This document shows positions 967-64,000 of a DNA stretch of 64,000 bases, piece after piece. Source of the stretch: an uncultured Methanosarcinaceae archaeon (GTDB lineage: Archaea > Halobacteriota > Methanosarcinia > Methanosarcinales > Methanosarcinaceae); NCBI GenBank assembly GCA_963833425.1, contig CAWHXP010000020.1, positions 32,001 through 96,000 of the forward strand, read 5' to 3'. Below the pieces are notes generated by a model. The model made no database searches, was not told the origin of the DNA, and worked only from the letters and a program-made list of their open reading frames with translations. Both the position numbers and the translations under genes were made by a program. Every line of letters starts with the position of its first letter. Within the stretch, counting starts at the first letter, position 1.

Positions 967-967
967 T

Positions 968-1752: not shown

Positions 1753-1778
1753 AAGGATCAGTTGACTTCATACCCTAA

Positions 1779-4747: not shown

Positions 4748-5152
4748 TTATTCATTTTCTCTAGGTCGTTCACCGGAAATCTTCAATGCATTATCTCCAA
4801 GCATCTCGATTTTCACAGAATCCCCTTCTTGGAAAATATTATGCACTGTCTTACCCTCGAGTAACACTTTGAGAATGTCTAAGGATTCAAATTCTTCTGC
4901 ACTTTTAGTGACCAAATCTGATAATGTAGCCACTTTTAGTGTTTTAGAACTAAGTGCTGCAAACATTTTAGGCTCCCGAAGAACGTTTATTTGAGATAAA
5001 TAATTGTCTAATATTTCATACAATGATATTAGTACTTCATCTATATGCCTAAAACTGGCATCAGTTATTTCAAGCATATATTCGTCCGATAACGAATTCA
5101 AATTTTCTTTACACCGAATAGCTAAATCTTTTTTATAATTCATAGTAATCAC
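4748..5152 (-). CDS. Hypothetical protein (element cargo)
   Basis: 134-aa ORF with normal composition; a GGTGA SD-like sequence precedes the internal ATG. Confidence 0.55.
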   Translation of the reverse strand: MITMNYKKDLAIRCKENLNSLSDEYMLEITDASFRHIDEVLISLYEILDNYLSQINVLREPKMFAALSSKTLKVATLSDLVTKSAEEFESLDILKVLLEGKTVHNIFQEGDSVKIEMLGDNALKISGERPRENE

Positions 5153-5269
5153 CTTACAAAATTATCCATATTTTCGAATTTGTTGAATTAGATGTCCTTA
5201 GGCTGTACATGCAACCGTTAGTTGCAGAGCTAAAAAAGGAAATTATATTTAGCATGTAGACTATGTTAT

Positions 5270-5575
5270 TCATGATGCGTAACTTCTCATTTCTGGGTCG
5301 CTCTGTTCTTGTGGGTCACTCGCGATGAAAGTAGGCGTCTGTATGGGTGTTTTGCAAACTTTCCGACTGCTTGGCCGCGACGGTATTTGCGAAACGCCTT
5401 TAGCAACACTTTTAATTAATATAGCCTGTGCCTGTTCATACACATTTCCACACTTAATTCTATAGTCAATTAAGTCAGAGAATTCTGTATAAAATTTTTT
5501 AAACATTTCTATCGTTTCTGGTTTTAGATCGTTCATTTGCTTCTCTCTCCCAGATGCATTACATTTTTTGAACAT
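5270..5575 (-). CDS. Hypothetical protein (element cargo); start may be the internal MNDLK
   Basis: 101-aa ORF co-oriented with its neighbours. Confidence 0.5.
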   Translation of the reverse strand: MFKKCNASGREKQMNDLKPETIEMFKKFYTEFSDLIDYRIKCGNVYEQAQAILIKSVAKGVSQIPSRPSSRKVCKTPIQTPTFIASDPQEQSDPEMRSYAS

Positions 5576-5601
5576 GCAGCTATCGAACTCTCTTGTGTAG
5601 T

Positions 5602-5781
5602 TTAATAGACGATATTTTCATGGCACGTATCACCTGCTATAATTCTAAGTTGATTTTCACTGTCCATCTCTATCATCACACTTTTCACATCTGAATCCCA
5701 CGATTTCATCCAAATCATCGGTAGAGCTATCATAAAGCTTCCTCCCTGTTTTATCACAGTTCTTTTCCCGAATTTAAACAT
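5602..5781 (-). CDS. AbrB/MazE/SpoVT-type DNA-binding protein
   Basis: 'KRTVIKQGGSFMIALPMIWMK...VMIEMD' swapped-hairpin pattern; GGTGA SD before the ATG at 5781. Confidence 0.7.
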   Translation of the reverse strand: MFKFGKRTVIKQGGSFMIALPMIWMKSWDSDVKSVMIEMDSENQLRIIAGDTCHENIVY

Positions 5782-5980
5782 GATTTCACCTTTATGTGCT
5801 AGCCTGTTGATTTGCTGTAAAGAGAAATCCCAAGAAGCTAAGGAAAAATGCCACATCGGGCTAGCAAATAATGCAGAGTATGCAAAAATTTGATTTTATC
5901 TTTATAGCCAATTCGCGAGACTTTCAATTATTACTATTGTAGCACAAATCTAATAGAGGTTAGACATTTATATTTATTTT

Positions 5981-6065
5981 TAATCGACAATAATTAAAAA
6001 ATCAGCGATAATTGACAATAATTAAAAAACTTGACGATAATCGACAATAATTAAAAAATTGGCGT
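5981..6065. repeat. Three tandem 28-29 bp direct repeats (core TAATYGACAATAATTAAAAAA)
   Basis: Copies start at 5981, 6009 and 6038, between divergently transcribed genes. Confidence 0.85.
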
Positions 6066-6152
6066 GAATCAACAAAAGATCACAATTTGTCGAGTATTAA
6101 ATTTATTATTTATAGATATATTCTAATATGAATTAGAACTAGCTATTATGGT

Positions 6153-7172
6153 ATGCAACGAGATAATCTGCAAGTAGAAACGACTGCAGAACGAATTTTA
6201 GGCAGTTTGTTAGAGTCTTATAAAACGACTGCAGAACTAGCAACCGAACTAGGTTATGTCAATCAAGCAGGCAATGCACGTTACAATATGATTTATAGAG
6301 CTTTAAAACAACTTAAAAAAAACGGTTATGTTGAAGGTTATAAAGTAAAATTAGGAAAATATGGAAACGATCCGACATTATATTCAATAGGTTTCAATAT
6401 TCAGAATCTAACTTACATATTGGAAGAATATCCAGGCTTAATATCAAAAATGCAAAAAAATGATTCAATTTGTGAGAATATATTCCGCGAGCATTTGGAT
6501 TTAATTTATGATTCAAGTAAGAAGGATGGGGATGAATATGCAGAAGTGACACTTTTTGAAAAAATAGAAACATCATTTAAAAAAAAATTGCAGTTATCAT
6601 ATGAATTTTTCAGACTTTTCTTGACTACTGACAAAAATAAATTGATTAATAACATTAAAAAACATAATGGATTTTTAGAGAATAAGGTATGCATGACGAA
6701 TCGTAAATCTGATCCGGATCCGAATAAATTGATAGAAATCGATAGAATAACCTTCGACATCGATAAAATATTCAGATTATGTGTTTGGAGGGATACATCT
6801 AAAGGACAAATGTGTATAGAAGGTGTAAACTACTTAGCACAAATGAAATGCGAACTATCATGTGAAGAAGAGCAAGAAGAATATATCGAGTACTTACGAA
6901 TAGAAACAAGATTCTCAGATTTACAAATCAAAAAATTAAGACAGGAAGTCATAAAATACTTGAACCAAATAAAAAACGAAATAGCAGATGCAGACAGTGA
7001 GAAATTAAAAGAAATAGTTGCCCATATTTGGTTTTTAAGATTCGTACTCATAAACTACATAATAAAAACAAAAAACGAAATGTCGGATGCAGAAATTACG
7101 AAATTAATAAACTCTGATGATAAATATAATATTGAAACAGATTTGTTAACTCTTTTGTACGAGAACACCTGA
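6153..7172 (+). CDS. N-terminal winged-helix regulator of the integrated element
   Basis: 'KTTAELATELGY...IYRALKQLKKNGYV' wHTH; 339 aa, intact. Confidence 0.7.
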   Translation: MQRDNLQVETTAERILGSLLESYKTTAELATELGYVNQAGNARYNMIYRALKQLKKNGYVEGYKVKLGKYGNDPTLYSIGFNIQNLTYILEEYPGLISKMQKNDSICENIFREHLDLIYDSSKKDGDEYAEVTLFEKIETSFKKKLQLSYEFFRLFLTTDKNKLINNIKKHNGFLENKVCMTNRKSDPDPNKLIEIDRITFDIDKIFRLCVWRDTSKGQMCIEGVNYLAQMKCELSCEEEQEEYIEYLRIETRFSDLQIKKLRQEVIKYLNQIKNEIADADSEKLKEIVAHIWFLRFVLINYIIKTKNEMSDAEITKLINSDDKYNIETDLLTLLYENT

Positions 7173-7429
7173 TTAGAATAAATTAATTCCCATTAAAAAT
7201 TTCAAAGTTAACGGGATAATAGTCTTTGAATACAGGTTAACATAACAACTTATTGAATATTTCTCCATTTACTCGACTATTGCGCTACCGCATTCTAAAA
7301 ATAAGGAGATATGCGCTTTAATACATTTTGGATAAGCGATCTTTTTATTCTATCTGATTAGCTTTGTTTAATATATTAATACATGTATTCAATAACCATA
7401 AATAAATAATAACATTTTATGTTTAAATT

Positions 7430-8647
7430 TTAAGTTTGCTTGTTCAAGAGTTTTTTGACTTCGATGGCTATTTTCTCCAAAACTTTTGGGTCTACACTGG
7501 AAACTTCTAAGAAGGATAAATCTAGTTTTTCTTTATCTTTTTCTAGTTTTAGGGAGGTTGCTTGATCGAGAACCAGTGAACATTGGCTACAAAATTTATC
7601 ATCCGGTTTTAACACATTATTACACCGTGGGCATCTTTTAAGTGTAACGTGTCTTTTGTCTTCAGTTTTGAGCCCGTATTTCTCAAAAATACTATTGTTA
7701 ATTTCGTGATCTGTGAAATTTGCATAAATTTTGAACATTTGAGTACTGCCCCGACTCCAGCCCGCTCTGTGCTTAATTTCCTGCTCATTAAGACCATCTA
7801 AAATCCAGTTTGTTATAGCCATATGTCGTAGCAAATGTGGATATACATTTTTCTTGATGCCTACTTTCTCGGCTGTAGTCTTTATCATTTTTCGGATAGC
7901 TTTATAACTTACAGCTTCTTTATTTTTGTTAAGAGTAATCCATAAGGGAGCTTCTGGATCTTCGTGAAAAGGATGAACTGCAAGCCACTGATTCAAATAT
8001 CCAGCGCTCCAAGTAAGTGGTAACCCTTTTGCTGATGTAGTCTTGTTAACTCCCATTTTTGAAAGGTAAATCATCGCCCCATATTGGTTAAAACTCACAT
8101 TTTTAACCCTACAGGATGCCAGAGCTCCCACTCTCATTCCGCTATCTGCAAGAATTGCAATGATTGCTTTATCTCGTGGATGCCTACAGCCTTCAAGAAG
8201 GTGGGTGAACTCATCTTTGGTCAGTATGTCGGAAGGTTGCACAGGGCTTTCAACTGATTTTAGCTTAAGATCCATGACCCATTTAGGAGAGTTCCCACCT
8301 GTGGACCATCTGAAAAACTTTTTAATCAATTTTTTATAATTTCTGATAGTGTTAGAAGATAATTTTCTTTCATCTTCAAAGGAAATAAGCAATCTATCAA
8401 AAGTATCAGGATCCAACTCGTTCAAGGTTTCATTAAATCCCAGTTCTTGAAGTTGCTCGACCATCCAAGTTGTATAGTATAGGTACCATACTAGTGTTGT
8501 TTTCGCAGCTCCTTCTCGTCGAAGAGCAATTGAAAAATTTTCAATTAATGCTTTGTTTTCTTTTCCAATCTCTGCATTTTCCAATCTCTGTTTTGCTTTT
8601 AAGTAACCAACATCAATACAATGAACATCATCAACCGATTTAGTCAT
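7430..8647 (-). CDS. Tyrosine recombinase/integrase with C-terminal zinc ribbon
   Basis: Catalytic motifs 'SGMRVG', 'PHLLRH', 'AGW', 'IY'; C-terminal 'CPRC...FCSQC'. Confidence 0.92.
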   Translation of the reverse strand: MTKSVDDVHCIDVGYLKAKQRLENAEIGKENKALIENFSIALRREGAAKTTLVWYLYYTTWMVEQLQELGFNETLNELDPDTFDRLLISFEDERKLSSNTIRNYKKLIKKFFRWSTGGNSPKWVMDLKLKSVESPVQPSDILTKDEFTHLLEGCRHPRDKAIIAILADSGMRVGALASCRVKNVSFNQYGAMIYLSKMGVNKTTSAKGLPLTWSAGYLNQWLAVHPFHEDPEAPLWITLNKNKEAVSYKAIRKMIKTTAEKVGIKKNVYPHLLRHMAITNWILDGLNEQEIKHRAGWSRGSTQMFKIYANFTDHEINNSIFEKYGLKTEDKRHVTLKRCPRCNNVLKPDDKFCSQCSLVLDQATSLKLEKDKEKLDLSFLEVSSVDPKVLEKIAIEVKKLLNKQT

Positions 8648-8859
8648 GTATATCTAACATATATTTAGGACTATAAACTTTTGGATTATAGACCAAATAG
8701 ATAAATAAACTTTAACAGAAACAAACAAGTATACTGACAAATTCAAAGAGCAAATTCAAGAGTTGAATTTTTAGCAAATCATAGCGTGGAAAGAGAGATT
8801 TGAATCCTCAATCATTTAAGGAAGTGAATAGAATCCACTTTATCTAAACCCACAAAAAA

Positions 8860-17920: not shown

Positions 17921-18773
17921 GGTTCCGTTGCAAAAATATCAGAATAAGCACGTAAATCATATGGATGATGAACAAAAGTCAAAATATCCGAGAAAAATGT
18001 ACCAATATTACAGAACTATTCCAAATAATTGATTGGTATATTTAGCTTCATTAAGACCCGAGTAGTTTAGATTCTTGATTTGTCCTTTTTTAACCATATT
18101 CAAAGCTTCAAATCCTTTTAAAATCTTAATTGCAGAGCGAAAAGACTGAAAGCTTAGCATTGGAGCAATTATCCACTTGATAGACCTATGATCTTGTTCT
18201 ACAATGTTATTCAAATACTTGACTTGTCTAATTTCAACCCTTTTAGAAACTTTTTTTCATTTTTCAATTCGTGTATGGCAATAGGATAAGCTGGATTCTT
18301 ATCAACTGTTATTGCTCTCGGCATTTGATTGTGATTTGAACTCAATGCTTTCTTAAGGAATCTCTTTGCAGCTTTTCTATTTAGTTTTGCACTTAACATG
18401 AAATCAATTGTGTTTCCATCTGAGTCAACTACTATGTAAATATATTTCCATTCACCTTTTATTTTTATATAAGTTCCATCAACTTTCCATGAATCGTTCG
18501 TTGGTCTTAAGTGCTTTCTTATCTTCTTTTCTATTTCAGGTGAATATTGATGCACCCATCTCATGATTGTCGGATGGTCGACATTTATTCCCCTTTCTGC
18601 CATCATTTCCTTTAAATTTCTATAGCTTAATGTATTTTTAAGTACCATCTTACGTTTAATAAAATAATTTCTCCTCATAGTGCTTCCATTTAAAGGAATT
18701 TACTGGCATACTATATGCTCCTAAATTTCTACTTTTTCAGTAAATCCCACTCATAATTTTTTGCAACGGAACC
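17921..18773 (-). mobile_element. IS6-family element, 853 bp, frameshifted transposase
   Basis: TIRs GGTTCCGTTGCAAAAA at 17921 and its complement ending at 18773; 'LSYRNLKEMMAERG', 'DKNPAY', 'NNIVEQDHR'. Confidence 0.9.
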
Positions 18774-27112: not shown

Positions 27113-27574
27113 AAAAGTCCTTATTTACATTATTTATCTCTAGTAATACCTATCAGTATCTCATAAAACTAATTGAATTGATTAGCTTTCAAGGAAATAT
27201 CAACCTCGATAAACATTACTCATAATTAAAAAATTAGGTTCTTGAAATTATTCGTATTACAGTTTGAATGTACTCCGAAAATCCAATAGACATTTGGATA
27301 TTGGTCTTATAAGAATACATTTAGATGATAACTATAAATATCAATTATTAGAGAATTTTTCGTTTAGTCTATCTCCCTATTGAAGCTTAATTGACCTAAA
27401 GGGAGAAATTATTGGAAAAAGCTGCAATGAGATATCTAGTTTCTAATTCAGGTTTTAGCTCTGGGTCGTGTCCATTAATTTTTAACACATTTTAACTAAT
27501 CTGTAAAAATTTATAATTTTTCTTAATCTTATCGGCAAATAGAAAATTAAACAAAAAACAAGGTAATAGAAAAT

Positions 27575-28420
27575 ATGAATTACATAATCGCCTCAAAAGA
27601 AGCAGATAAGCAAATAATGGATCAGCTTATTCAACTCTTAGAGGAAGCTGGATTTTACGTTTATAGTGATCGCAAGAAACTTAAAGATGGAGATTGTTGG
27701 CGAAATAAGATCTACTCAGCTATTTGTTCTTGTCATGCAGCGGTTGTCCTGGTTACTCAGGAGGCCCTTGATAATGCGAAATATCCATGGGTATTTAAGG
27801 AATGTTCCATGTTTACAATGTTGAAATATGCAAACAGCCAGTTTCCGATCATTCCTATTACAATGACTGGAGTAACAATTGAGGATATCGATAAATCTTC
27901 CTTCAAAGCACTCCAGCTTAACGAGATTATGGCAGGGTCCTACGAAGACCTCAAGACTGTGATGGACATAATTAAAAGCAAGCTAGGTGAACCAGAATGC
28001 TCAGATGGCCCTCTTTATTATCTTCACAACCTTATTGCAAATATTTCTATTTTGAGTGATAAAACAGAAGACGACTATCTGGACTTCCTTTGTGCCATTT
28101 CAGGGGATCTAAGCCTGCTTCCGCCGCGTATTCAGGAGGCATTTACAGACACATCTCTTCTTTTTTTAGGCCACAGGATAGCTGATTGGGATTTCCGTGT
28201 TTTTTCTGGATTCTTGCTGAATACTTAAAAATAAGTAGTCATAAAAAACACTATTCTGTGCAAATCGTGCCAAGGAATTTTTCTGAGGCCCAAAAAAAAA
28301 GCTCATGTATATCTGGATCACTATTTTACGGAGCTTGATATCCACGTATACTGACACGATTGCCGTGAATTTGCCGCAAAATTCGTAACACGATGGGAGG
28401 CTTTCAATAGTGGCACCTAA
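27575..28420 (+). pseudogene. TIR domain fused to a partial SIR2-like domain; frameshifted near 28200
   Basis: TIR 'GFYVYSD..LKDGDCW..I..AI..CHAAVVLVT...WVFKE'; SIR2-like 'TEDDYLDFL...LLPPRIQEAF..SLLFLG.RIADWDFRV', tail 'CREFAA...RW'. Confidence 0.75.
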
Positions 28421-29962
28421 GTTCCAGGCTTACGTGGTCCCTCGACCCTTTGAAGAGAAACACAATATCATTTTTTTTCTGAAGATACCGTGAAGCTCAA
28501 GATCTCCGGTCCTTAGTCATTGCGCATTGTTTGGTTCTCGTCTATGCCCAGTCGGGTGCAGGTAAGACTTCACTTATCAATGCAGGGCTTATTTCTCTCC
28601 TGAAGGAAAAAGGGTTTGAAGTTCTCCCTGTGGCGAGAGTTAAAGGTACACTTTTTGAAAATATAAAAACGGACTCGATATCAAACATATACGTCTTTAA
28701 TACTCTCACAAGCTGGGCTGAAGGTGAGTATGATGTTGAGCGCCTGGCTAAAATGAAATTTGTTGATTTTTTGGGTGCACGAGAGCATACGCTGGATGAA
28801 GATAGTATGCCTTACGCCGTGTAGTCATCTTCGATCAGTTTGAGGAAATATTCACTTCGTATCAAGACCGCTGGAAAGATAGAGAGGGATTTTTTGAGCA
28901 ATTAAGCACTGGTCTGGAAGCAGATCCCCTTGTAAGAATAATTTTTGTCATGCGGGAGGATTTTATAGCTCAGCTAGACCCTTATGCAGAGGTTCTACCA
29001 GAAAGATTGCGGGCGCGTTTTCACTGGAACATCTGCGCAGTGAGGCTGCTCTGCAGGCAATCAAAAGGCCATTGATAGGTAGTACTCGCTCTTTTGTAGA
29101 AGGCCTAGCAGAAAAACTTGTTGACGATTTGCTGAAAAGTCGAGTTAAGACAACGCCAGGCAAGACCGCTGAAATAAAAGGAGAGTTCATAGAGGCTTTG
29201 CAACTTCAGGTGGTATGTCAGGATCTCTGGCGGGAGTTACCGCCGGATGAAAAACAAATCACTTTTCAGCACCTGGAAAAATATGACAATGTAGAAAAGA
29301 TACTTTACAGTTTTTACGACGAAGCTATAAAGGCTGCGGCAGAGAAGGCACACATTGATGAGAAGGGCCTTCGCACATTGTGCGGTGAAGTGTTGATCAC
29401 GGAGATGGGAACACTAGGACGGTGTACCGGGCTCCAGAGTACACGGGTGATATTCTCAATGTACCCATTGACGTGATTAAAAGCATGCACCTTATTAGAG
29501 CAGAGTGGCGGGCAGGTACACGCTGGTATGAACTGACACACGACAGGTTTATAGAACCGATACTAGCTTCTAACAAGGTTTTTAATGATGAATTGGTAGA
29601 GAATAAACCGCTAGAGAAAGAATTGGCAGAAAAAGAAAGAAGTAGAAACCGCATTATTAAAGGTTTTGTGGTCTTTTATATTACTATTTTAAATTTAATT
29701 ATTTTTATTCTAGTAGGATTTATAGCTTATCACTAGTATCAGCACGAGGAACAGACGAACCATAATTATTTGGTGAATAACGTTGTGTTCAGTCATAATG
29801 GAAAAATATGTCGCTATAGCGAGTGCTGACAATGCTGCTAAGTTGTGGATGTTTATCAGTACAGAAGATCTTATTAAAGAAACCAGCAATCATTTAACCC
29901 AGAATCTTACACCAGAGGAATGAAAAAAGTAGATTGGTGATGAGCCTTATCACAAAAAGTTA
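28410..29962 (+). pseudogene. nSTAND1-like NTPase + TM + WD40 protein, multiply frameshifted and internally deleted
   Basis: 'PRPFEE', 'AQSGAGKTSLINAGL', 'IFDQFEEIF', 'MREDF', 'LQLQVVC', 'YELTHD', a TM helix, WD relic 'NVVFSHNGK...ASADNAAKLW', tail 'LTQNLTPEE'. Confidence 0.8.
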
Positions 29963-48517: not shown

Positions 48518-48900
48518 TCAATAATGCCTAAGTGTATCCCCATTTGAGTCAACTGCTCGGTAAAGATATTTCCATTTACCTTTTACTTTGATATAGGTTT
48601 CATCAACTCTCCACGAATCATTTGTTGGTCTTAAATGTCTCATTATCTTCTTTTCTATTTCAGGGGAATATTGATGTACCCATCTCATGATTGTTGTATG
48701 GTAAACTTTTATTCCCCTTTCTGCCATCATTTCCTTTAAATTTCTATAACTTAATGCATATTTTAAGTACCATCTTACATTTAATAGGATAATTTCCCCT
48801 TCATAATGCTTCCATTTAAAGGAATTAGATAGCATGTTACTACCTTTGGTTTTCTTTTTATTCTATTGTATCAGTAGAAAGGATTTTTTGCAACGGAACC
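48518..48900 (-). mobile_element. IS6-family element, 5' half only
   Basis: TIR ends at 48900; 'FKWKHYEGEIILLNVRWYLKY...WRVDETYIKVKGKWKYLYRAVD'. Confidence 0.88.
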
Positions 48901-50887: not shown

Positions 50888-51019
50888 TAGGTTTTGTAAA
50901 ATGTGATTAGCTCTTTATCCTTTTCTTTCACTGCAAAAAAGCAAGCTGTTGAGTCAACTATTATGTTAATAAAGGTATGTTTCTATTGTTTATTGATGAA
51001 TAGTTTTTGCGCTAAAATC

Positions 51020-51611
51020 TTTGAATTTCCTAAGCTCCATCCGAACGAAAAACTTGATTTGCCGAAAGTTAACGTTTTTAGGTAATATTTTATCATCTTT
51101 GAGTTCATTTATAGCAGCTGGATAAACTGGATTTTTATCAACAGTTATTACCTTTGGAATTTGATTCTGATTAGAATCCAAAGCTTTCTTAAAAAACGTT
51201 TCGCAGCTTTTCTATCACGCTTTGCACTTAGCATAAAATCAATTGTGTTTCCATTTGAGTCAACTGCTCGGTAAAAATATTTCCATTTACCTTTTACTTT
51301 GACATAGGTTTCATCAACTCTTCACGAATCATTTGTTGGTCTTAAATGTCTTCTTATCTTCTTTTCTATTTTAGGGGAATATCGATGTACCCATCTCATT
51401 ATAGTACTGTGATCAACTTGATTTCCTCGTTCTATCATCATTTCCTTTAAATTTCTATAGCTCAATGAATATTTTAAGTACCATCTTACATTTAATAGGA
51501 TAATTTCTCCTTCATAATGCTTCCATTTAAAGGAATTAGATAGCATGTTACTATCTTTGGTTTTCTTTTTATTCTATTGTATCAGTAGAAAGGATTTTTT
51601 GCAACGGAATC
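51020..51611 (-). mobile_element. IS6-family element, frameshifted and 3'-truncated
   Basis: TIR ends at 51611; near-identical to 48518-48900. Confidence 0.88.
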
Positions 51612-51692: not shown

Positions 51693-53674
51693 TTACATGA
51701 ATAGACTTAGTAACCTGAATGCAATACCGCCTATCATGATTGCTGTGCCTATTTCTGCTATTGTTACAGCAGTTGCTTTTCTCCATCCAAATTCTGATGC
51801 CATAGCTAGTATATTGGCTAGGCATGGAATGTATATCATGCTGACCAACGCCAATACTATTAATTGCACCGGAGTCATTATCGAGCCAAAGTTCGTAGTA
51901 TGGAAAATTACAGCCAGTGTTAATAGAGTCATTTCTTTCCTTACGATTCCGAATATCAACAATATACCAGATACTGCTGGCAATCCAAGCCACCAGACAG
52001 TTATCGGCATTAGTGCATTATTAATCGGAGTTAGTACTCCAAATGCATATAATGCTTGCACTGCAGCACTGCCGATTATGTAAGCTGGGAATACGATCAT
52101 AATCAATGATTTGGTGCGTGCCCACGTCTGTTTGAGTATAACGCTGAGAGAGGGTACGTGATAATCTGCCATCTCTATGATAAGACCAACAGACTCTCCA
52201 GGCATTACTTTGAATGCTATGCGACCTACCACGATAATTAGCAGTATATCAAATACATATAGTGCCAGACCCCACCAAATACTTACAAATGTGGCTACCA
52301 ATCCTAAAATAACGATAGTCCTCGCCGTGCAGGGTATTAGTGTAACCAGGTAGGCTAAGAGTGTTTTTTGCTTCGGGGTTTCCATTATCCGACAAGAGTA
52401 AACCGCTGGCACATTGCACCCATACCCGAGAATAAGGGGAATTACTGCCTTACCATGCAATCCAAGCTTATGCATACCGCGATCGAGCATGAATGATATT
52501 CTAGTCAAGTATCCAGAATCCTCAATAAATGCAAGTATTAAGTAAAATGGTAGTCACATACGGGATTATGAGAGTTACTCCGGCTACAAATCCGGTGAAA
52601 GCTCCATTCCATATGATATTTTCTATGGGACCTGTAATGACTGGTTCATACTGCTCTATCGCAGTTAAAAAGTCTTGTATAAAGTCCGAAACACGGGCGC
52701 CTATGAGGAACGTCCAGATCAACAGCCCCCCAATGACCATGATAGCAGTCACATATCCCAATACTGGGTGCAGAGCGATATTATCCAAGGTTTCTGTCAA
52801 CGTTCTTTTTTTCACTCCTGACATGACGTCCCTGAAGACCTCGTGAGCAATCAGATCAGCTACATGATAGCGTTCACCTGTGATCACTATTCCAGATGGC
52901 TCACCATGTATCTTCTCGATCTCGTCAGCCAGTGAATCAGCTAACATGGGAACATTCGGGTCAGCCTTTTCGAAGAGGCTGCGAATCTCAGCATCTTTCT
53001 CGATGAGTTTGATAGCCATCCACCGTGAAGGATATCCAGTTTTTACATTGCCCATGGCTGCTATAAGCTTCTCTAAGCGCTGCTCTATTTCTTGACCATA
53101 TTTTATTTTGTTTGGAAGTTTTTTATTTTCGATTGCATCGATGATTATTTCTGTCAGTTTATCGATACCAATTCCCTTGATTGCTACAGTGGTGACTACA
53201 GACACTCCCAGGAATTTCCTCAAGTTTTTTAACATCAATGGATAATCCTTTTTTTTCCATGAGGTCCACCTGGTTGAGTGCCATGACCATCGGTACGCCT
53301 AATTCAATCAGTTGTAGTGTGAAAAACAAATTTCGTTCCAGTGCCGATGCGTCTATGACATTTACGACTATATCCGGCTTTTCAAGAGCGATGAAATCTC
53401 GAGATACGATCTCTTCCATTGAATATGTGGAGAACGAGTATATTCCTGGCAGGTCGATTATCTTGATCCTCATACCTTTATAATGCAATAATCCCTCGGC
53501 ACGCTCTACAGTCTTCCCCGGCCAGTTGCCTATTATCTGATCCACGCCAGTTAATTGGTTAAATATGGCACTCTTACCCACGTTAGAGTTCCCTGCAAGA
53601 GCAACCACCCTTTTGAAATCTTTCATTTTTTTAGATGCGGAATCACACTGCCCACAACTTTTACATCCTGCCAT
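51693..53674 (-). pseudogene. feoB: Ferrous iron transporter B split by two +1 frameshifts (~53216, ~52553)
   Basis: 'GNSNVGKS', 'GNWPGKTVE', 'DLPG', repaired 'EDSGYLTR', 'GYGCNVP', 'IPCTAR', 'YIPCLA'. Confidence 0.9.
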
Positions 53675-55668: not shown

Positions 55669-56217
55669 TTAGAACTGAACCTTTACAGGCTCTCTTTCCT
55701 TAGACTCAGTCTCCAGATAAGTCCTTGTCTTCTTACCAAGTATTCCAGCAAAAATAGAGCCCGGTAGAGTAGTAACCAAGTTATTAAAAACAAGCACACT
55801 GTCATTATAGTGCTGCCTTGCATAAGCAACCTTATTCTCAATTCCAGAAAGCTCTTCCTGAAGCATAAGGAAATTCTGATTTGCCTTAAGTTCTGGATAA
55901 TTTTCGGCTATTGCAAAAAGCGATTTAAGAGTCCCAAAAAGCATATTTCCAGCTTGATCCTTTTCTTCAATCGTCTTTGCGCCCATCATCCTTGCTCTTG
56001 CATCAGAAACAGCCTCAAAAATTGATTTTTCATGCGCTGCATAACCCTTCACAGTTTCGACAAGATTTGGCACAAGGTCAGCCCTTTTCTTCAGCTGAAC
56101 ATCAATCTGAGCCCATGAATTATCTATTGTGTTAGAAAGCACATTAAGTCTGTTAAAATAATACACAAAGACTAGCACAAGTACCAACAGTACGCCTAAA
56201 ACGATATACTCCATCAT
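55669..56217 (-). CDS. lemA: LemA family protein
   Basis: 'QIDVQLKKRADLVPNLVETVKGY', 'ENYPELKA', 'ARQHYN'. Confidence 0.95.
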   Translation of the reverse strand: MMEYIVLGVLLVLVLVFVYYFNRLNVLSNTIDNSWAQIDVQLKKRADLVPNLVETVKGYAAHEKSIFEAVSDARARMMGAKTIEEKDQAGNMLFGTLKSLFAIAENYPELKANQNFLMLQEELSGIENKVAYARQHYNDSVLVFNNLVTTLPGSIFAGILGKKTRTYLETESKEREPVKVQF

Positions 56218-56315
56218 ACAACTACCTCACAATATGTATATAATCTACTATCTACTACATCCAACTTTCTACAGGGTTGGATAGTTCACTTATCTTAAGC
56301 GAAGTATAAGTTTTT

Positions 56316-57635
56316 TCAAAAAAAGTCTAACTTTGTAGACCTTGCTAATGGCCTTTTTAATTTTGACAAAACAATAGATTCAACATCAGTGTAATTATTT
56401 TTAATTATCTCGATATCCTGAATCTGAAACAAAGTTTCAATTACAGCCTCGATATCATTTGGCAAAGTTATATACCTAATATTACCCCGGCCTTCACGAT
56501 ACTCCGCATTAATAAGCTGTCTTGCAGAAAGAGTTGTTAATCGTGTTGATATGTATGTTTCGCCGTTTGGCTTTTGCTGTAAAAGTTCGCAAATTTTACG
56601 ATATGTTACTACTATAACACCAGAATGTGCAGGAGTTTTTGAATTAGTTTGTTTGACAACATTATTAGCGATATAAACGGACAATATCAAGTATTTGTCA
56701 TGTAATGACATCCTTTTCAACATATCTATTGTGACTCTATCATTGACTACTTTTTCTGCCATATCTATATGTTCACTTGTAATTTTTGAGCCCTTCGTTT
56801 GGATTACAATTCTAGCAGCTTCGGCTAATATGTCAATGGCACGTCTAGCATCTCCATGATATCTATCCGCAACATTTTTAGCACAATACAAAATTACGTC
56901 ATCAGAAATTACACCATCTGCAAAAGCATCTTTTCTTAACTGTAAAATTTCATACAATTCTTTATCATTATAATCTGGGAAATCACAATACCTGAATCTT
57001 GCAGATGATTGCACTTTATTATTAAGTGTAGCTAAGAAGTCTTTTTGATTCGAGGCTGTTATAATTTCTATTGCTACATTACTCGATTTTATTTTTTGAT
57101 GTGCAAGCGCTCTACTGAACTGATAAAGGATATTGTCAGGTGATACGAAGGCATCTATTTCGTCAAAGAACAGAATTAATGTGTAAAATGTATGTTCATG
57201 AGCTTTTTTATCTATTATAGACCAGATATCATTTAGATACTGATAAAATTGTCTCCCAGTTTGCATAGAGATGCCAGTTAACTGAGTCAATATTTCCACA
57301 CACGCTGGAATTTCAGAAGAGAATGCTGTACAATCTATTACAACCGTATCAATTAGTATGTCTTTATCCTCTGCTTTTAACCCTTCAGTCAGGATTCTTA
57401 AAAGATATTTTACTGTGATTGTTTTGCCAACACCTGTATCTCCCCAAATATACATGTTACTAGGCTCACCCTGTCTCAAAATTGCAGAAAGATTATGGCC
57501 TATAACCTCCATTTGTTCATCTCTGGCAATTACAGTGTCAGGAACGTATCTACTATTTAGTAGATGCTCGCAAGCTATAATAGGACTAGCAGGGTCGAAA
57601 AACCTTGTATACGGCACTCTAATCTTATCTATCAA
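56316..57635 (-). CDS. cdc6: Cdc6/Orc1 replication initiator, divergent copy A
   Basis: 'GDTGVGKT', 'FFDEID', 'FPDY', 'GDARRAID', C-terminal WH domain; TTG start with SD. Confidence 0.9.
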   Translation of the reverse strand: MIDKIRVPYTRFFDPASPIIACEHLLNSRYVPDTVIARDEQMEVIGHNLSAILRQGEPSNMYIWGDTGVGKTITVKYLLRILTEGLKAEDKDILIDTVVIDCTAFSSEIPACVEILTQLTGISMQTGRQFYQYLNDIWSIIDKKAHEHTFYTLILFFDEIDAFVSPDNILYQFSRALAHQKIKSSNVAIEIITASNQKDFLATLNNKVQSSARFRYCDFPDYNDKELYEILQLRKDAFADGVISDDVILYCAKNVADRYHGDARRAIDILAEAARIVIQTKGSKITSEHIDMAEKVVNDRVTIDMLKRMSLHDKYLILSVYIANNVVKQTNSKTPAHSGVIVVTYRKICELLQQKPNGETYISTRLTTLSARQLINAEYREGRGNIRYITLPNDIEAVIETLFQIQDIEIIKNNYTDVESIVLSKLKRPLARSTKLDFF

Positions 57636-57697
57636 TATACCACCTACTTATTACATAGTCTATTTTAACATATAGAACTTACGATTTGAGAAGATAT

Positions 57698-58159
57698 GAT
57701 TGAAAGTACTTTTTTGACATCATGCGACACTATTAAATAACTACTTTCGATTGAGATACTTTCACTCGACCCCCTCCCCCCCTCCGCAAGTAATATAGTA
57801 GTTGTTGCAGGAAAAGAAAATAAATTTTTTGAAGCTTGTATGGATAAATTGTGATAATTTAGATTTTATTAGATATCTACTTATACTATTAATTTCATAA
57901 CTCTACAACAAGATATTTTTGATATATATCATTTTATCTGATAGATACCTTTTAGTCTCCAAACAAGCATCATAACTTCCTGAACCCTACCTACTATTAA
58001 TATAAAATATTTCTATAAACCCCTATTTTTGGCTGGTCACTTATAAAGCTTGTATAAGCACTTTGGTGGAATTGGAGTTTGATCTAACGTCTCTATAGTA
58101 CCTTTGAGGGGGGAGGGGGTATTTAGTGAAAGTTCTTGGTTTTTGTAAATTGAAAGTAC
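57698..58159. other. Putative replication origin: inverted ORB-like repeats with G-strings flanking an AT-rich tract
   Basis: ACTTTCACT..ACCCCCTCCCCCC at 57758-57785 and its inverse at 58106-58134; extra GAAAGTA motifs at ~57701, ~57742 and ~58151. Confidence 0.7.
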
Positions 58160-58279
58160 AGTCAACCGATGCGCCTTCCAAAATCTATATAGATCAAAAG
58201 AACTTATTTTAACCCCAACAGGATTTAAATTGGATGAATCTACTTCCCTATACAGGTACGCTGCCCTAGAAAAGAATGG

Positions 58280-58557
58280 GGCTGAAGCAGCTTGGAGCAA
58301 GTTAATAACTATCACAACTTTAAAGGCAGAATGAACTGGTAAACGTGTAGAGTTTGTTGACCCAAGAAATACATCTCAAATGCGCTCTGGATGTGGTAGA
58401 ATAATGAGAAGAATTATCAGACAGAACATATAGTTATCTTTTCTGTAGTTTGATAGTGGATAGAGATTATAATACCGTCATTAGCATACTATGACTGGGA
58501 TTCTAATTTGTGGAATGAGCCTAAATGCTAGTGGCTTCAGTCATGAGAGTCGCCACT
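58280..58557 (+). pseudogene. tnpB: IS200/IS605 TnpB C-terminal relic with right end
   Basis: 'AAWSKLITITT.KAE..GKRVEFVDPRNTSQM.SGCG...DRDYN'. Confidence 0.8.
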
Positions 58558-58864
58558 AAATCTTCAATCCTATTAGTTGCTTTTGTTGGCAATAGTGTCT
58601 GTGTGGTTTAACGCTAAGTATTGAATTTTTCTCCCTAGACAAGCATCAGCGTTGCAGGTGGTGGATTAAAGCCTTCAACTTTATATAATTTTTAAGGTAG
58701 AATATGTATATATAGCTATAGTTCTTTATTTAATTAGATAACTATCAAATACAATCTCGATCAATGGAGCTATTTGTTTGTGCACTCCACTACCATTTTG
58801 TACCATGCGCAAAATACAGAAGAAAACCTATTTATGTTCAATAGATAGTGGATTTACTGGAATC

Positions 58865-59124
58865 TAAAATTCATGATACGCCTTCTTAGAAGCGTGTTAT
58901 GATTTGTGATTGCGATACCTATATTGATAGGGATCGAAATAGTTCTATCATTATTAAGCCATGTTTCCTACCCCAAAATACAGATGGAGGGGATATCAAT
59001 AACTTGTTGACCTTCGATAATATAGAATTCCCGATGGACATTAAATTTGAGAACAGATGAAGGAATTGCTCGAAGGAATTCCCTTCTTCGGAGGGTATCA
59101 ACTCGCTAGAGGGGAGAAGTTCAC
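58865..59124 (+). pseudogene. tnpB: Second TnpB 3' relic with right-end-like hairpin
   Basis: 'KRVMICDCDTYIDRDRNSSIII', then a GC-rich hairpin region ending AGTTCAC. Confidence 0.6.
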
Positions 59125-59210
59125 ACTTATCCACGTGAATTGTTTATTTGTTGGTTATAGAGTTATTTTTCCAACAAAATTTAAATACAACTGCCAACAA
59201 TTAGCATACG

Positions 59211-60470
59211 ATGATTTCTGAAGACACCGAGATAACTGATTACGAAGAAATTTTTGAAACACGTCAAACAAAAATTTTTAAAGATTCTAGTGTGTTATCT
59301 CCTGATTATATTCCCAAAAAGCTAATTGGACGAACAAAAGAAGTATTGGAACTTGCCAAGGTCTTCAAGCCGATTGATTATAAGGGTTATCCGTTCAATG
59401 CCTTAATTTTTGGGAAAACTGGTTCTGGCAAGACAGTTGTAACAAAGTTCCTACTACAAAAATTGATGGAACGACTTGAAGCGACTCCTAATATCATGGA
59501 TCATCATATTCAATGTATCTATATCCAATGCAAGACCAATTGTACAATAAATGGGGTATTAAATGAGATCATTAAACATGTAGATCCAGCAAATAAAATG
59601 CCTCGAAAGGGTTTTGCTCTTGGTTACTATTATGAAGAACTCTGGAATGTAATAAAAGAAAAAAGTGTGTCACTTGTAGTTGTGTTCGATGAGATAGACC
59701 GCTTAAAGGATGATGAAATCCTTTACAATTTAAGTAGAGCTGGAGAAATGCAAAAGCTGCCAGAAAGGCATTTTATCTGTATAATTGGAATTTCTAATGA
59801 CCTTGATTATGGTAAGGAGTTAGATAGCCGGGTTATTTCTTCAATGAGTCCGAAAGATCATGTTTTTGCTCCGTACAATGCAGAGCAAATTATTATGATT
59901 TTGAATGAGCGTGTAAAGATAGCTTTTTGTGATGGCGTTGTGCCCCAAGAAACAATCAATTTATGCGCTGCTTATGCGGCTCAAGATCACGGAGATGCTA
60001 GAAAAGCCATAAAGCATCTGAAAATGGCTGCTGTATATGCAGAAGAGAATGATTTTTCTCAAGTGCTACCTGAACATGTAGAGGCTACTTTAGAAAGTTT
60101 AGATGTCGATAGGATTCAGGATATGGCAACGTATCTTCCACTACATGAAAAAATTGTTCTTCTTGCTATTTTAAAACTAACAAATTATGGAAATCCAAGT
60201 ACTAACTCTCAAACTGTAACTAGTTTGTACAATCAGATGTGTTTTGAAATTCATAAGAAGCCACTGCATCGAACAACAATAGCTAGTAAATTTGGAGATT
60301 TCAAGATGATAGGCCTCATAAAAACCTCTTCCGTGAGAAAGGGGAAGGGTGGAGGATGGAAAGATATTAGGCTATCAGTTCCTTCAGGTAGTGCAATTGA
60401 AGAAGTATTATATCAGGATTATAATTTAGAGATGTTGAGGGATTTCAAGCCTGCTCCATTTTCAAATTGA
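59211..60470 (+). CDS. cdc6: Cdc6/Orc1 replication initiator, divergent copy B
   Basis: 'IFKD..VLSPDYIP', 'GKTGSGKT', 'VFDEID', 'FAPYNAEQ', 'HGDARKAI'. Confidence 0.94.
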   Translation: MISEDTEITDYEEIFETRQTKIFKDSSVLSPDYIPKKLIGRTKEVLELAKVFKPIDYKGYPFNALIFGKTGSGKTVVTKFLLQKLMERLEATPNIMDHHIQCIYIQCKTNCTINGVLNEIIKHVDPANKMPRKGFALGYYYEELWNVIKEKSVSLVVVFDEIDRLKDDEILYNLSRAGEMQKLPERHFICIIGISNDLDYGKELDSRVISSMSPKDHVFAPYNAEQIIMILNERVKIAFCDGVVPQETINLCAAYAAQDHGDARKAIKHLKMAAVYAEENDFSQVLPEHVEATLESLDVDRIQDMATYLPLHEKIVLLAILKLTNYGNPSTNSQTVTSLYNQMCFEIHKKPLHRTTIASKFGDFKMIGLIKTSSVRKGKGGGWKDIRLSVPSGSAIEEVLYQDYNLEMLRDFKPAPFSN

Positions 60471-60484
60471 GGAAAGAAAGACTA

Positions 60485-60650
60485 TGTAGGTATTGAATAT
60501 TTTGCAGTTATTTCGACAGGAGATAAAATTGAGAATCCTAAATATCTAAAAAATTTTCTGCAAAGATTGAAATATCTACTGAAGAGAGTTTCATCTAAAA
60601 TAAAAGGTTCAAATAACCGCAATAAAGCTAAATTGCACCTTTCAAAATCT
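60485..60650 (+). pseudogene. tnpB: TnpB internal relic
   Basis: 'VGIEYFAVISTGDKIENPKYLKN.LQRLK.L.KRVS.K.KGSNNRNKAK'. Confidence 0.75.
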
Positions 60651-60881
60651 AGACCAAAAAGATTATTACAGAGATCGAAAATATTTAGGAAATCAGGCAA
60701 ACATTTTTGAATAAGCAAAAGAAAATTAGCTCCCGATTTTCGATATCAATAACTATTTTGCAAAATAAATCCTTTAAGAGAATTCATCCTATCTAGAAAA
60801 AATAGCAATAGGTTTTGTTGAGTTTGGGATTATGACAGCGGATAATGGAAACTTGGTCATTTAAAATTTAAGTAAGTGAAT

Positions 60882-61257
60882 TTACCAAAATCTCCACCAC
60901 GGTTTTTTAGCTCCAGGTGCTTCTATAGCTTTCTGATTGATGAGAGTTTGGACCTGTAGAACATGTTTATTGTACATTTCAATCAGATCCTCTTTATCCT
61001 TCTTTAAGTCCTCTATCTGATTTTGTGCTTCTTCCAATCTTTTTTCCATTTCTGGAAATCGTGCTTCCTGGTTGCTTCCCAATGTTCCGGATTGCTTCCT
61101 AATGCTTCCTGGTTGCTTCCCAGTTCCTGATGTTCGATAAGCTTTTCAAATGCTGTAATTACGGCCTTTGTGGGGCTATCATATCCTAATGCTTCTACTT
61201 TCTTCCAAAGGCCTCCGGGACACCAAACATTGATTTTGTGTTTTCTTCCGCTGTCAT
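60882..61257 (-). pseudogene. Ribbon-helix-helix + coiled-coil protein ending KKPWWRFW; 125 aa after repairing two 1-nt deletions
   Basis: MTAEEKHKINVWCPGGLWKKVEALGYDSPTKAVITAFEKLI, then LGSN(Q/P)EA x3, a coiled coil and APGAKKPWWRFW. Confidence 0.75.
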
Positions 61258-61286
61258 GAGGAAGTTTTAGGAATTAATTCAATATG

Positions 61287-62060
61287 AAACTTCCTACATT
61301 TCCTACTGTTTATCAATATTTCCTAATGCTTCTCTATTCTTTTTTCGCTTGCAGTTCTTATTTTCTTCCCGATGCTTCCTATATTTCTCCCTCATGCTTT
61401 CTATATGACTTCCTATTGTTTCTGGATTGCTTTCTTGTACTTCCTATTTTCTTCCTGCTTTCTGCTCATTTCTTCTTATTTGCTTCCTAATTCCTCTTAA
61501 ATACTTCTATTGCTTCTTTATTTTCTTGCTTCTATTTTCTTCCTAATGCTTCCTCTATATCGCCTTCATGTTTTCTATACGGCTTCCTATTGTTTCTGGA
61601 TTGCTTTCTTACTTCCTACTTGCTTCCTTATTCTTCCTATTTGCTTCCTGCTTTCTGCTCATTTCTTCTTATTTGCTTCCTATTACCTCTTAAATACTTC
61701 TATTGCTTCTTTATTTTCTTGCTTCTATTTTCTTCCTTATGCTTCCTATATATCGCCTTCATGTTTTCTATATGACTTCCTATTGTTTCTGGATTGCTTT
61801 CTTACTTCCTACTTGCTTCCTTATTCTTCCTATTTGCTTCCTGCTTTCTGCTCATTTCTTCTTATTTGCTTCCTAATTCCCTCTTAAATACCTCTATTGC
61901 GTCTTTATTCGCTTGCTTCTATTTTCTTCCTTATGCTTCCTATATATCGCCTTCATGTTTTCTTATGGACTTCCCATTGTTCCTGGATTGCTTTCTCTTA
62001 CTTCCTATTGCTTCCTATTCTTCCTAATTGTTTTCTAATTCATCCTGGATTAATTCCTAA
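61287..62060. repeat. Pyrimidine/purine-skewed tandem array: ~193-bp units built from ~10-bp phased TGCTTCCT-like motifs
   Basis: CTCTTAAATAC recurs at 61494, 61687 and 61881; dozens of (T)GCTTCCT/CTTCCT motifs. Confidence 0.9.
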
Positions 62061-62332
62061 TACTTACTAATTATTTCTAATTGGCTATGTGTCTACTTGT
62101 CTGTAATATAACAAATTTCAAGAATTTTTTGAGAATGAAATTCCACGTTTAGTATTGCTTGTTTACGAGACATTTTCTTATTTTCTGGGTTTTTGATTGA
62201 TTGCAGTTAATTGACGGTGGAATTAATGGTAACTTTTTGCGATTCCCGAGATATTAATAACATAATTTTAGGCAAAAAGGGTGAACTTTTAAGCTTATAG
62301 AATTTTTATAATAGAAGATTCAATTAGATTCA

Positions 62333-63370
62333 ATGGAAAGACTTGTAAAAATGGTAATGGCACTTTTAACCATTATCCTCCTAACTGCAGTTATTGTTTA
62401 TGCAACACTTCCTTATATAAACTATTTTTTAGGGGCCTTTATCCTTTACATTATATTCAGATCCATTTATCATTTTTTGTAAAGAAAACCAGGCTCAATA
62501 AACAATTAGCGGCAGTTTTGGTGATAATTATTTCAATATGTGTTGTACTCATTCCATTGTATTTTCTCCTAGGTATAATTATTAATGAAATACAACAGCT
62601 TTTACTTAACCAGGCTTTATTATTACATCTATTAGATCTGAAAACCAATTTCTCACTACTTATCTTTCAGGGCTGGGTATTCCTACTGATGTTCTCCAAA
62701 AACAGATACAAGAAAGGGTTATGAGCATTGGTTCTGAAGCTGTCAATTACACAAGTAAGTTCATTCTTGGTTCAATTCAGATATTGAGCCAGCAGTCTAT
62801 AGGCCTCTTAATTATGTATTTTTTGTTTTACTACCTCTTAACAGGAGAAGATTCTATTTTTGCACACAAAATTTATGCGGCAGTTCCATTCAATGAAGAA
62901 AAACATCCACTCTACTGGACGAGTTCAGAAGAATTGTCAGGACAACTATGATTTCTAACGGGGCTATAGCCCTTTTTCAGGGTGCAATTCTGACTATCAC
63001 TTTTTTGATCGTAAAAATTCAGGGAGCTTTTCTCTGGGGTTCTATTGCAACACTCCTTTCTTTTTTGCCAGTTTTCGGATCAACTTTAGTCTGGGTTCCT
63101 GCAACAGTTATTGAGTTTCTACTGGGAGATTATACTGCAGGGAGTGCTATTCTTGCTGCAGGGATATTTGTAGGTGTAGTGGATAGTTTTCTTAGGCCCA
63201 TGATCCAGAAAAGAGTTGGAGAAATACATCCTTTTCTATCTCTTATTGGGATTATCATAGGAGTATCCCTTTTTGGATTGATCGGAATCATTATAGGCCC
63301 ACTTCTCCTTTCCTACTTTATTCTGACCTTAGAAATGTTTTCCAAGGAGTACCTTTCTGAGCTGAAGTAA
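62333..63370 (+). pseudogene. AI-2E family transporter, frameshifted
   Basis: Hydrophobic segments across three frames; 'LPVFGSTLVWVP', 'DSFLRP', 'IHPF', 'GIIIGPLL'. Confidence 0.85.
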
Positions 63371-63727
63371 AAATATAATTGTGAGGGTATTAAATGAAAG
63401 ACAGACAAAATATAGGGGTGGCTAGCACAAATAATGTTATAAGCCAAAACCAGACCACAGACACAATAACAGTGGACTTTTATGATGGTATAGTAAATAA
63501 AAATAGACGGAGTTACGCTAGTAAATTCGGTCCGTGGCTTGGATAAGTAACATTATGGAGATCCACTTAAAATTACAACTTAAGCGCGAAAACTGCAATT
63601 TCTAAACTCAGGTGCACTCTATGTCATGATGGGAAGCAAAAACCTTGCTATATTTACCTCACGTAGGATAAAAAATAAATGAAAATTAAATGACTATCCA
63701 ACTTACAAATTGGTTTATCTAATCTAT

Positions 63728-64000
63728 TTAATAGCTTTTCTTATTTTTCAAAGCTATTTCATTCTGAGGGTTAATTTCGATTGATTTGTCATATGCTTTT
63801 ATTGCTTCCTTGGACTTACCTGATTTATATAGAGCAACTCCTTTATTGTTCCAAGCCATTGAATTCTTCGGATTAATTTGAATTGATTTGTCATATGCTT
63901 TTATGGCTTCACCGTATTTATTTAAATTGGCAAGAGCAACTCCTTTAGTGTACCAAGCATTTGAAGCCCTAGGGTTAATTTTAATTGCTTTGTCATATGC
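63728..64000 (-). CDS. TPR-repeat protein, C-terminal part; 5' end outside window
   Basis: 'AYDKAIKINP...AWYTKGVAL..L.KY.EAIKAYDKSIQINP' 34-aa repeats. Confidence 0.88.
   Translation of the reverse strand, partial: AYDKAIKINPRASNAWYTKGVALANLNKYGEAIKAYDKSIQINPKNSMAWNNKGVALYKSGKSKEAIKAYDKSIEINPQNEIALKNKKSY

Follow-up and report, generated by a model that had tools for sequence, protein, structure and literature searches.

A gene with an unusual repeat array at its promoter was analyzed in the window, by which we mean the whole 64,000-nucleotide (64-kb) stretch of DNA from an uncultured Methanosarcinaceae archaeon (genome G000 in our set, contig C20). The gene, on the minus strand, encodes a small protein with a ribbon-helix-helix (RHH)-like head, a coiled coil, a glutamine-rich helix and a KKPWWRFW tail, and an array of short direct repeats lies directly upstream of it. 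On balance, the protein is probably an autoregulator of the RHH type that stems from a mobile element and acts on an iterated operator overgrown through unequal recombination.

The array is real and phased, and it has no equal elsewhere in the 4.07-Mb genome. GGAAGC occurs 40 times in the window, compared with a mean of 21.2 and a maximum of 33 in shuffled sequences, and 18 of these 40 occurrences fall in positions 61063-62015, every time on the minus strand. The minus strand of positions 61040-62100 carries 36 copies of the shorter GGAAG, with 16 of the 35 intervals measuring 9-11 bp, and in the whole assembly the richest 800 bp holds 30 GGAAG, the runner-up 8 and the mean stretch 0.8. In context the motif reads (A/C)A(A/T)TAGGAAG(C/A/T)AA; the Fourier spectrum of its positions peaks at 10.8 bp with a power of 0.50, whereas none of 200 random placements exceeded 0.28, and the gene strand of the array is 78% purine. 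The first two full units listed in Table 1 are 95% identical, and the third reaches 93.9% (blastn). The initial annotation had described a noncoding array of about 750 bp built from ~193-bp GGAAG(C) units, of which the phasing and the units were borne out, while the array is not purely noncoding because five GGAAGC copies sit within the coding region. Rfam gave no match in positions 56000-64000, and the 64-kb window contains no tRNA genes. A plus-strand open reading frame (ORF) of 125 aa in the array (61510-61887) was rejected as a gene, since it represents the pyrimidine-rich complementary strand and since G019, a related genome, has a different array sequence at this place; reading TAG as pyrrolysine helps to open neither the array nor the gene, as TAA and TGA stops persist.

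Table 1. Coordinates of the features discussed in the text (positions in the window; a dot marks features given without strand)
Feature	Position	Strand	Remarks
Gene with RHH-like head, coiled coil, Q-rich helix and KKPWWRFW tail	60882..61257	-	In three frames in this assembly
Intragenic repeats	61063..61120	-	Five GGAAGC(A) at 10-11 nt spacing; code three LGSNQEA-type heptads
Inverted pair AGGAAGTTT / AAACTTCCT	61259-61267 / 61287-61295	.	A+T-rich spacer; last base one short of ATG
Array of TAGGAAG(C/T/A)A-like direct repeats	61296..62030	-	28 exact GGAAG plus degenerate copies
Full 193/194-bp units	61427-61619, 61620-61812, 61814-62006	-	Part unit 61300-61426
Distal arm of 33-nt inverted repeat	62039..62071	.	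Partner arm 61256-61288; 82% complementary; arms bracket array
Cdc6/Orc1 gene cdc6_B, accessory	59211..60470	+	Pfam Cdc6_lid, Cdc6_C, AAA_22; convergent with RHH-like gene
41-nt inverted pair	57758-57798 and 58093-58133	.	Between the cdc6 genes; 12-13-nt G/C strings
Cdc6/Orc1 gene cdc6_A, accessory	56316..57635	-	Pfam; divergent from cdc6_B

The likely promoter is covered by the inverted pair nearest the gene, found where the initial annotation had placed it. Its arms are identical in G019, where the spacer has one change, and loci L076 and L078 carry the same arms as well; the segment 61259..61295 is the probable operator over the promoter.

In this assembly the gene is frameshifted twice, being one base short each time. 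The ATG at 61257 opens frame 1, frame 2 gives KINVWCPGGLWKKVEALGYDSPTKAVITAFEKLIEHQELGSNQEALGSN, and frame 3 is a 66-aa open frame with the KKPWWRFW end. The first frameshift lies in the A-run near 61237-61240, where one extra base is present in all six related public contigs spanning 61240. The second lies near 61084-61088, within an extra heptad repeat, where GGAAC stands instead of the expected GGAAGC; since five related public contigs spanning 61070-61072 lack 20 nt there, the additional heptad repeat of this assembly measures one base less than 21. Intact relatives encode 118 aa (G019 and L076) or 125 aa (L077 and L078), and the 125-aa reconstruction offered initially is reasonable, as it equals the longer of these forms. 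Conserved genes of the window are split too, FeoB into three ORFs (51693-53674) and the AI-2E permease, which is whole in G019, into at least three (62333-63370). Frame breaks are numerous in the assembly, and the frameshifts may therefore be real or assembly indels. The public runs all have small shares (at most 0.17), and their short-read contigs leave the interior of the array uncovered, which has no bearing on its absence; contigs from RNA libraries extend over the gene and promoter and are no measure of transcription.

The AlphaFold2 model of the whole protein (predicted local distance difference test [pLDDT], 73.5) consists of an extended N-terminal segment, helices 15-23 and 29-47, and a long helix 57-106; the head modeled alone (52 aa; pLDDT, 79.2) is extended at 6-13 and helical at 15-23 and 29-42. 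When this head model was compared by VIA-align with 48,161 PDB chains, the best match was 6iya_A (CopA_SO; Z 4.8, root mean square deviation 2.3, 44 residues aligned), and the other fold matches included omega (Z 4.5), Arc (Z 3.8) and ParG (Z 3.3), as well as NikR, ORF56, PutA, SvtR and AmrZ. About 40 of the 50 best matches listed are, to judge by their entry names, RHH proteins. One data source tags two distant family members as Arc/MetJ-type RHH. Since the fold matches come without a significant profile match, the modeled head is called RHH-like here at the fold level only. For the coiled coil, the evidence is the predicted long helix together with profile matches of coiled-coil type alone; the Pfam, NCBIfam, PHROGs and PADLOC profiles returned nothing but such coiled-coil noise for the protein, and so did the PDB sequence search. 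The C-terminal 45 residues are the conserved part in an alignment of 11 members, with Q95, Q97, T98, L99, I100, Q102, K103, I105, G109, K112, P113 and W118 invariant and the KKPWWRFW tail nearly so. Like Trp/Arg peptides, this tail is rich in interfacial residues, and its composition suggests that it may tether the protein to the membrane. The structure prediction proposed in the initial annotation as a check agrees with the three-part protein that it had recognized.

The repeats are most probably the binding sites of the protein itself, a prediction that rests on comparison of the paralogues. In the window gene and its G019 counterpart, GGAAG occurs 6-9 times within the 200 nt upstream and 3-6 times in positions +100..+260 of the coding sequence (CDS), and GGATA is missing; in L027 and the C10 paralogue, conversely, GGATA occurs 3-6 times upstream and 6-9 times in the CDS, and GGAAG is missing. 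The background for either motif is 0.2-0.25 per 200 nt. Seven other paralogues have neither motif in excess, with a top count of 2 GGAAG upstream of C20a. The L027 and C10 lineage carries six GGATAY at 10-11-bp spacing just upstream of the promoter and at least nine within the GYKQDIE heptads of its CDS, in the same layout of two copies per heptad that is seen in the window gene, where the motif occurs twice in the 21 nt of each LGSNQEA heptad, at spacings of 10 and 11 nt and in a different reading frame each time. As coding does not require two copies per heptad in two frames, we counted this layout in favor of binding sites. One GGATA-type paralogue (L027:5460-5510) ends in GGAAGC repeats (EATGSNQED) and not in the WWRFW tail, having apparently recombined with a GGAAG-type gene.

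Across the family, at least three identical 5-mers at 9-12-bp spacing within 250 bp upstream were found at 23 of 77 metagenome loci, compared with 15 of 660 control windows taken from the same loci (three of the original 80 were dropped for having less than 150 bp upstream). These 5-mers, twelve different ones, lie mostly at -70 to -30, and at 9 of the 23 loci the linker CDS contains the upstream 5-mer two or more times; most paralogues carry 3-6 repeats or none. Because the motif changes with the paralogue, keeps its helical phase and brackets the promoter, it is best explained as the protein's own site, of which autoregulation would be the simplest consequence. The earlier proposal that the protein coats the array thus gains comparative support as to a specific link between the two, the motif covarying with the paralogue, and the binding itself is a prediction.

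Arrays are present at all orthologous loci (at least 86% protein identity), namely, the window and L075 to L078, and they are polymorphic. L075, which is the same sequence as G019, has 23 GGAAG in 900 bp upstream and a 300-bp tandem duplication that spans the promoter and the 5' half of the gene and is joined within a TTAGGAAGCAA that CDS and array have in common. Upstream GGAAG copies number 15 at L076, in ~129-bp units, 7 at L077, for which 196 bp of sequence were available, and 24 at L078, where a 64-bp unit is repeated 7.5 times almost perfectly. Contigs of three public runs join 61331 directly to 61978, omitting 646 bp. Because every orthologous locus has an array but the unit lengths differ (64, ~129, 193 and 300 bp), the array appears to expand recurrently by unequal recombination, with different units per strain. 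All four lengths are near whole multiples of 10.7 bp. Recombination between motif copies yields such multiples, and the unit lengths are therefore no independent evidence of selection.

In the mechanism that we favor, the protein would act as a small dimer composed of an RHH head, a coiled-coil stalk, a Q-rich C-terminal helix and a basic Trp-rich tail, recognizing the ~10-bp direct repeat TAGGAAG(C)A, whose copies recur on the same face of the helix every 10.7-10.8 bp. Its predicted sites lie upstream of the promoter, in the inverted pair over the promoter and inside its own linker-coding heptads, and binding along them would most probably repress its own promoter, in the way of an iterated operator like the omega, CopG and ParR repeats. 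With copies of one motif flanking the promoter on either side, blocks would be duplicated and deleted over and over as the copies recombine unequally. The 750-bp array would then be a recent expansion (193-bp units, 94-95% alike), other expansions having occurred in sister strains. Binding, autorepression and any role of the tail are the parts of this scheme that we infer. The gene family itself looks like the remains of mobile elements; it is multicopy, often decayed, confined to Methanosarcina within our searches, and convergent, usually with a small-terminase-like (TerS-like) gene and sometimes with accessory cdc6 genes.

Several observations weigh against such an autoregulator. The gene copy in this assembly is out of frame twice. 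The fold Z-scores do not exceed 5 and are low in absolute terms because the head domain is small; Foldseek with the protein models returned nothing at an E value of ≤0.001, Pfam profiles gave no RHH family at an E value of ≤10 for 11 family members, and the NCBIfam and PHROGs profiles gave none for the head. Phased upstream repeats occur at about 30% of the family loci, many of which are close kin, so that the independent lineages number about ten. Motif sharing between the upstream region and the CDS could in part be a by-product of partial gene duplication, as with the 300 bp in G019. Finally, a simple autoregulator needs few sites only, and that their number has risen to 15-30 repeatedly and independently, in each orthologue, points to a possible additional role.

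Known systems offer precedents for parts of this arrangement. ParR of plasmid R1 with its parC site, omega, and ParG/CopG are small RHH dimers that bind helically phased direct repeats at their own promoters, and in this class cooperative coating doubles as autorepression. The protein described here shares with them an RHH-like head and iterated phased repeats around its own promoter, without a detectable sequence-profile relationship. Unlike them, it has no ParA/MinD-type partner that we could find, possesses an added coiled coil and a conserved C-terminal module, has candidate sites running into its own coding region, and belongs to a chromosomal locus in an archaeal host. The iterated, centromere-like promoter array is shared with RHH partition systems of types Ib and II, whereas the autonomous low-copy replicon of those systems is not seen here. 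Among archaea, SegAB and AspA-ParB-ParA of pNOB8 use site-specific DNA-binding proteins to build segregation complexes, SegB being reported as RHH-type. Both have a ParA-type ATPase, whereas none matched on the contig studied here, and no sequence relationship to either was seen.

The Par protein of the staphylococcal plasmid pSK1 binds repeats upstream of its own gene. Par and RocS of Streptococcus pneumoniae both consist of an N-terminal DNA-binding domain, a parallel coiled coil and a short C-terminal membrane-binding peptide, have conserved glutamines ahead of the tail and work without a dedicated NTPase (PMC11500499). The comparison with pSK1 Par drawn in the initial annotation is therefore apt, since the head/coiled-coil/C-terminal layout is common to Par and RocS. 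However, the RocS and Par head is a MerR-type winged helix, whereas the head here matches RHH proteins, and PF04394 (DUF536) had no match at an E value of ≤10 in 11 family members. Likewise, the RocS and Par tail is a MinD-like amphipathic helix, whereas that of our family is an 8-residue Lys/Trp/Arg/Phe peptide. RacA of Bacillus subtilis resembles the present layout in joining a DNA-binding head to a coiled coil, and it, too, binds repeated centromere-like sites and anchors DNA (PMC11500499). It differs in its winged-helix head, its dispersed GC-rich sites, its DivIVA anchor and the absence of an array at its own promoter.

Homologues of the protein, all named hypothetical proteins, occur in metagenomes and a few genomes, and no description of the family was found in the literature searched, supplements and subscription-only papers being outside its scope. 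The precomputed family label is PF28256. Whole-genome searches identified the family in four of eight sampled genomes of the window's genus, whereas 72 genomes representing 15 further genera of that taxonomic family had no copy; the protein family is multicopy and, within the searches made, restricted to Methanosarcina. The window's genome contains three intact paralogues and many decayed fragments. No relative was found among the 2.9 million viral contigs of IMG/VR or, apart from one spurious coiled-coil match, the 72,556 plasmids of PLSDB. The locus is chromosomal in all records seen, with chromosomal flanks (FeoB, DtxR and the AI-2E permease) in G000, G019 and L078. The initial annotation had seen no ParA or other NTPase gene in the window, and the profiles PF13614 and PF01656, which have 8 and 11 matches in the genome, have none on the whole 127-kb contig C20 either; ParM/actin-type proteins were not searched.

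The usual neighbor is a convergent gene of 140-149 aa with a small-terminase PHROGs match (phrog_4102, E value of 5e-25). Downstream of the family gene, this TerS-like gene was found at 22 and cdc6 at 3 of the 53 metagenome loci with at least 900 bp of downstream sequence. The window's genome has about 40 tblastn matches to it, many decayed, and it adjoins at least 10 copies of the RHH/coiled-coil gene, with no match near the copy in the window (C20:92-95 kb) and no large terminase beside it in the loci inspected. An example of the TerS-like gene is C10:36169-36615 (L001:4170-4616). The two genes usually stand tail to tail and make up an odd two-gene cassette that may be selfish. Several such cassettes are abutted by an IS6/IS240-family element with about 100 copies genome-wide, of which transposase genes and fragments lie in the window at 18011-18699, 48521-48862 and 50993-51211. 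The window also includes an integrated element (580-8653) that carries genes for a tyrosine integrase (7433-8653) and a Prim-Pol protein (3560-4030); the left end of the element (~530-1306) is 90% identical to DNA beside TerS-like genes elsewhere in the genome. The initial annotation had proposed that homologues be checked for upstream phased arrays and for nearby cdc6 or plasmid genes; the repeats at 23 of 77 loci and the arrays at all orthologues speak for the proposed association, and the 3 of 53 loci with cdc6 and the absence of a plasmid relative in PLSDB speak against it.

The initial annotation had also placed the gene about 400 bp from a cdc6 gene, and cdc6_B indeed ends 411 bp from its stop codon. 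Both cdc6 genes of the window have the AAA+ domain, the Cdc6 lid and the C-terminal winged helix above the Pfam cutoffs. cdc6_A shares 30% identity with cdc6_B and 28% with the chromosomal copy; cdc6_B is 96% identical in G019 only and 35-37% identical to the conserved chromosomal Cdc6, a gene located where complete chromosomes begin and represented separately on a different contig of G000. Judging from these comparisons, both genes are accessory. The 41-nt inverted pair between them resembles archaeal origin recognition box (ORB) elements and would presumably provide candidate recognition boxes of a captured origin. Where archaea have additional Cdc6 copies, these are generally traced back to plasmids or viruses that integrated (PMC3914693).

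Gene order in G019 is as in the window (cdc6, the gene on the opposite strand, array, AI-2E permease). On the permease side and across the array and the gene, L077 and L078 correspond to the window, but they diverge 57 bp past the stop codon, and L078, with an intact 86%-identical orthologue and an array of its own, is followed by DtxR and FeoB without cdc6. Because of this divergence, the block cdc6-origin-cdc6 is an accessory insertion or deletion beside a gene whose array expands with or without it. Complete genomes were uninformative as to the synteny borders, LemA lying far from the permease there and both being only 52-65% identical. Among seven further accessory-cdc6 loci, three have a family member within 4 kb (L038, in the same convergent layout, L019 and L042), and L088 is another family member near cdc6; several other accessory cdc6 loci examined had no family member nearby.

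Other features of the window were recorded in passing. A ~95-bp dispersed repeat (62167-62260) has 20 further copies in the genome and copies in many relatives, reaches high depth in metagenome and RNA-library contigs, and could be a miniature inverted-repeat transposable element or a small RNA gene. The translations of 60484-60710 and 58340-58430 resemble, by eye, fragments of TnpB/IS605 OrfB; 60484-60647 matches multicopy DNA in other Methanosarcina genomes and has no second copy in the window's genome. An ORF with a TIR domain, followed by nSTAND1 NTPase fragments, at 27551-29072 may be a broken defense gene.

Besides the overgrown operator, we considered that the protein might form a one-protein partition or anchoring device, in which it would coat the array as a centromere-like site, the coiled coil would give multivalency and the tail would hold DNA at the membrane, helping the inheritance of an accessory cdc6-type replicon or of a chromosome region as RocS and pSK1 Par do. 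We regard this as unlikely. The layout matches that of RocS and Par (PMC11500499), and Q95, Q97 and Q102 are invariant here; protein-language-model neighbors include clusters labeled DUF536 or regulator of chromosome segregation-like (0.86), which count as a lead only. The array of every orthologue far exceeds the typical operator length, and an accessory cdc6 lies within 4 kb of a family member in the lineage of the window, G019 and L076 as well as at L038, L019 and L042, with L088 to be added; extra Cdc6 copies in archaea generally have a plasmid or viral origin (PMC3914693). The RocS membrane helix, a single one, requires oligomerization for membrane binding (PMC11500499), and by analogy a coiled-coil dimer on the array would supply it. 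However, the contig has no ParA/MinD-type NTPase match, the family is absent from the viral and plasmid collections searched, the TerS-like gene is its downstream neighbor far more often than cdc6, and L078 keeps an expanded array and an intact gene without cdc6; moreover, neither DUF536 nor a MerR-type head was detected, the locus is chromosomal in all records seen, and the membrane affinity of the tail is deduced from its composition alone. A bolder form of the idea, which we hold to be rather improbable, is an archaeal counterpart of RocS and pSK1 Par with an RHH head: one protein would polymerize on the dynamic phased array, pin DNA to the membrane by its Trp-rich tail, and segregate or silence captured cdc6-type replicons without an NTPase, and the sites in its own linker heptads, in two frames, would let protein length and site number coevolve.

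It is similarly doubtful that the long array is functionless, a mutational by-product that arose when short purine-rich repeats, first seeded as parts of the gene's 5' end were duplicated, slipped and crossed over unequally. The tandem duplication in G019, with its junction in a sequence common to CDS and array, would fit this origin, as would the variation of unit length and copy number in every strain and the youth of the units, deduced from their near identity within a strain (94-95% here, near perfect in L078). The 193-bp unit can also be aligned colinearly with the promoter and 5' CDS, scoring 150.5 against a mononucleotide-shuffle mean of 69, but this is not above the null of permuted motif blocks (mean, 135.7; standard deviation, 11.2), and we do not claim that the unit is a decayed copy of the gene's 5' end. 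Against a functionless array stand the retention of the motif and its 10.7-bp phase as other sequence decays, the presence of distinct phased motifs at the same promoter position in unrelated paralogues, and the occurrence of an array at all the orthologous loci seen. Far less probable still is that the array belongs to a replication module, either as iterons or control sites of an accessory Cdc6 origin or as a pac-like site of the terminase-like partner. It lies 1.3 kb from cdc6_B and 3.2 kb from the ORB-like inverted pair, and the convergent TerS-like gene is the usual companion of the family, but at L078 it persists and expands without the cdc6 block, the intergenic region of the cdc6 genes (57636 to 59210) contains no GGAAG, no TerS-like gene is present at this locus, and the motif covaries with the RHH-like gene and not with cdc6.

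The locus offers a clear, testable pairing of a DNA-binding protein with its probable site, in which the GGAAG and GGATA paralogues are natural specificity swaps and provide built-in controls. Its parts, i.e., RHH proteins, iterons and the head/coiled-coil/tail layout, are of known kinds. What is unusual is that a 21-nt unit serves both as seven codons and as two helical turns and that each strain examined shows its own expansion of the upstream array, independent of the others and with another unit length; neither heptad DNA doubling as predicted phased sites nor strain-specific array expansion was found described in the literature searched. If the protein does anchor DNA, it would be the first example described for archaea of a segregation-type device that works without an NTPase and would give a handle on how Methanosarcina treats captured replication modules. 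If it does not, the locus would be a good model of how an iterated operator grows and shrinks.

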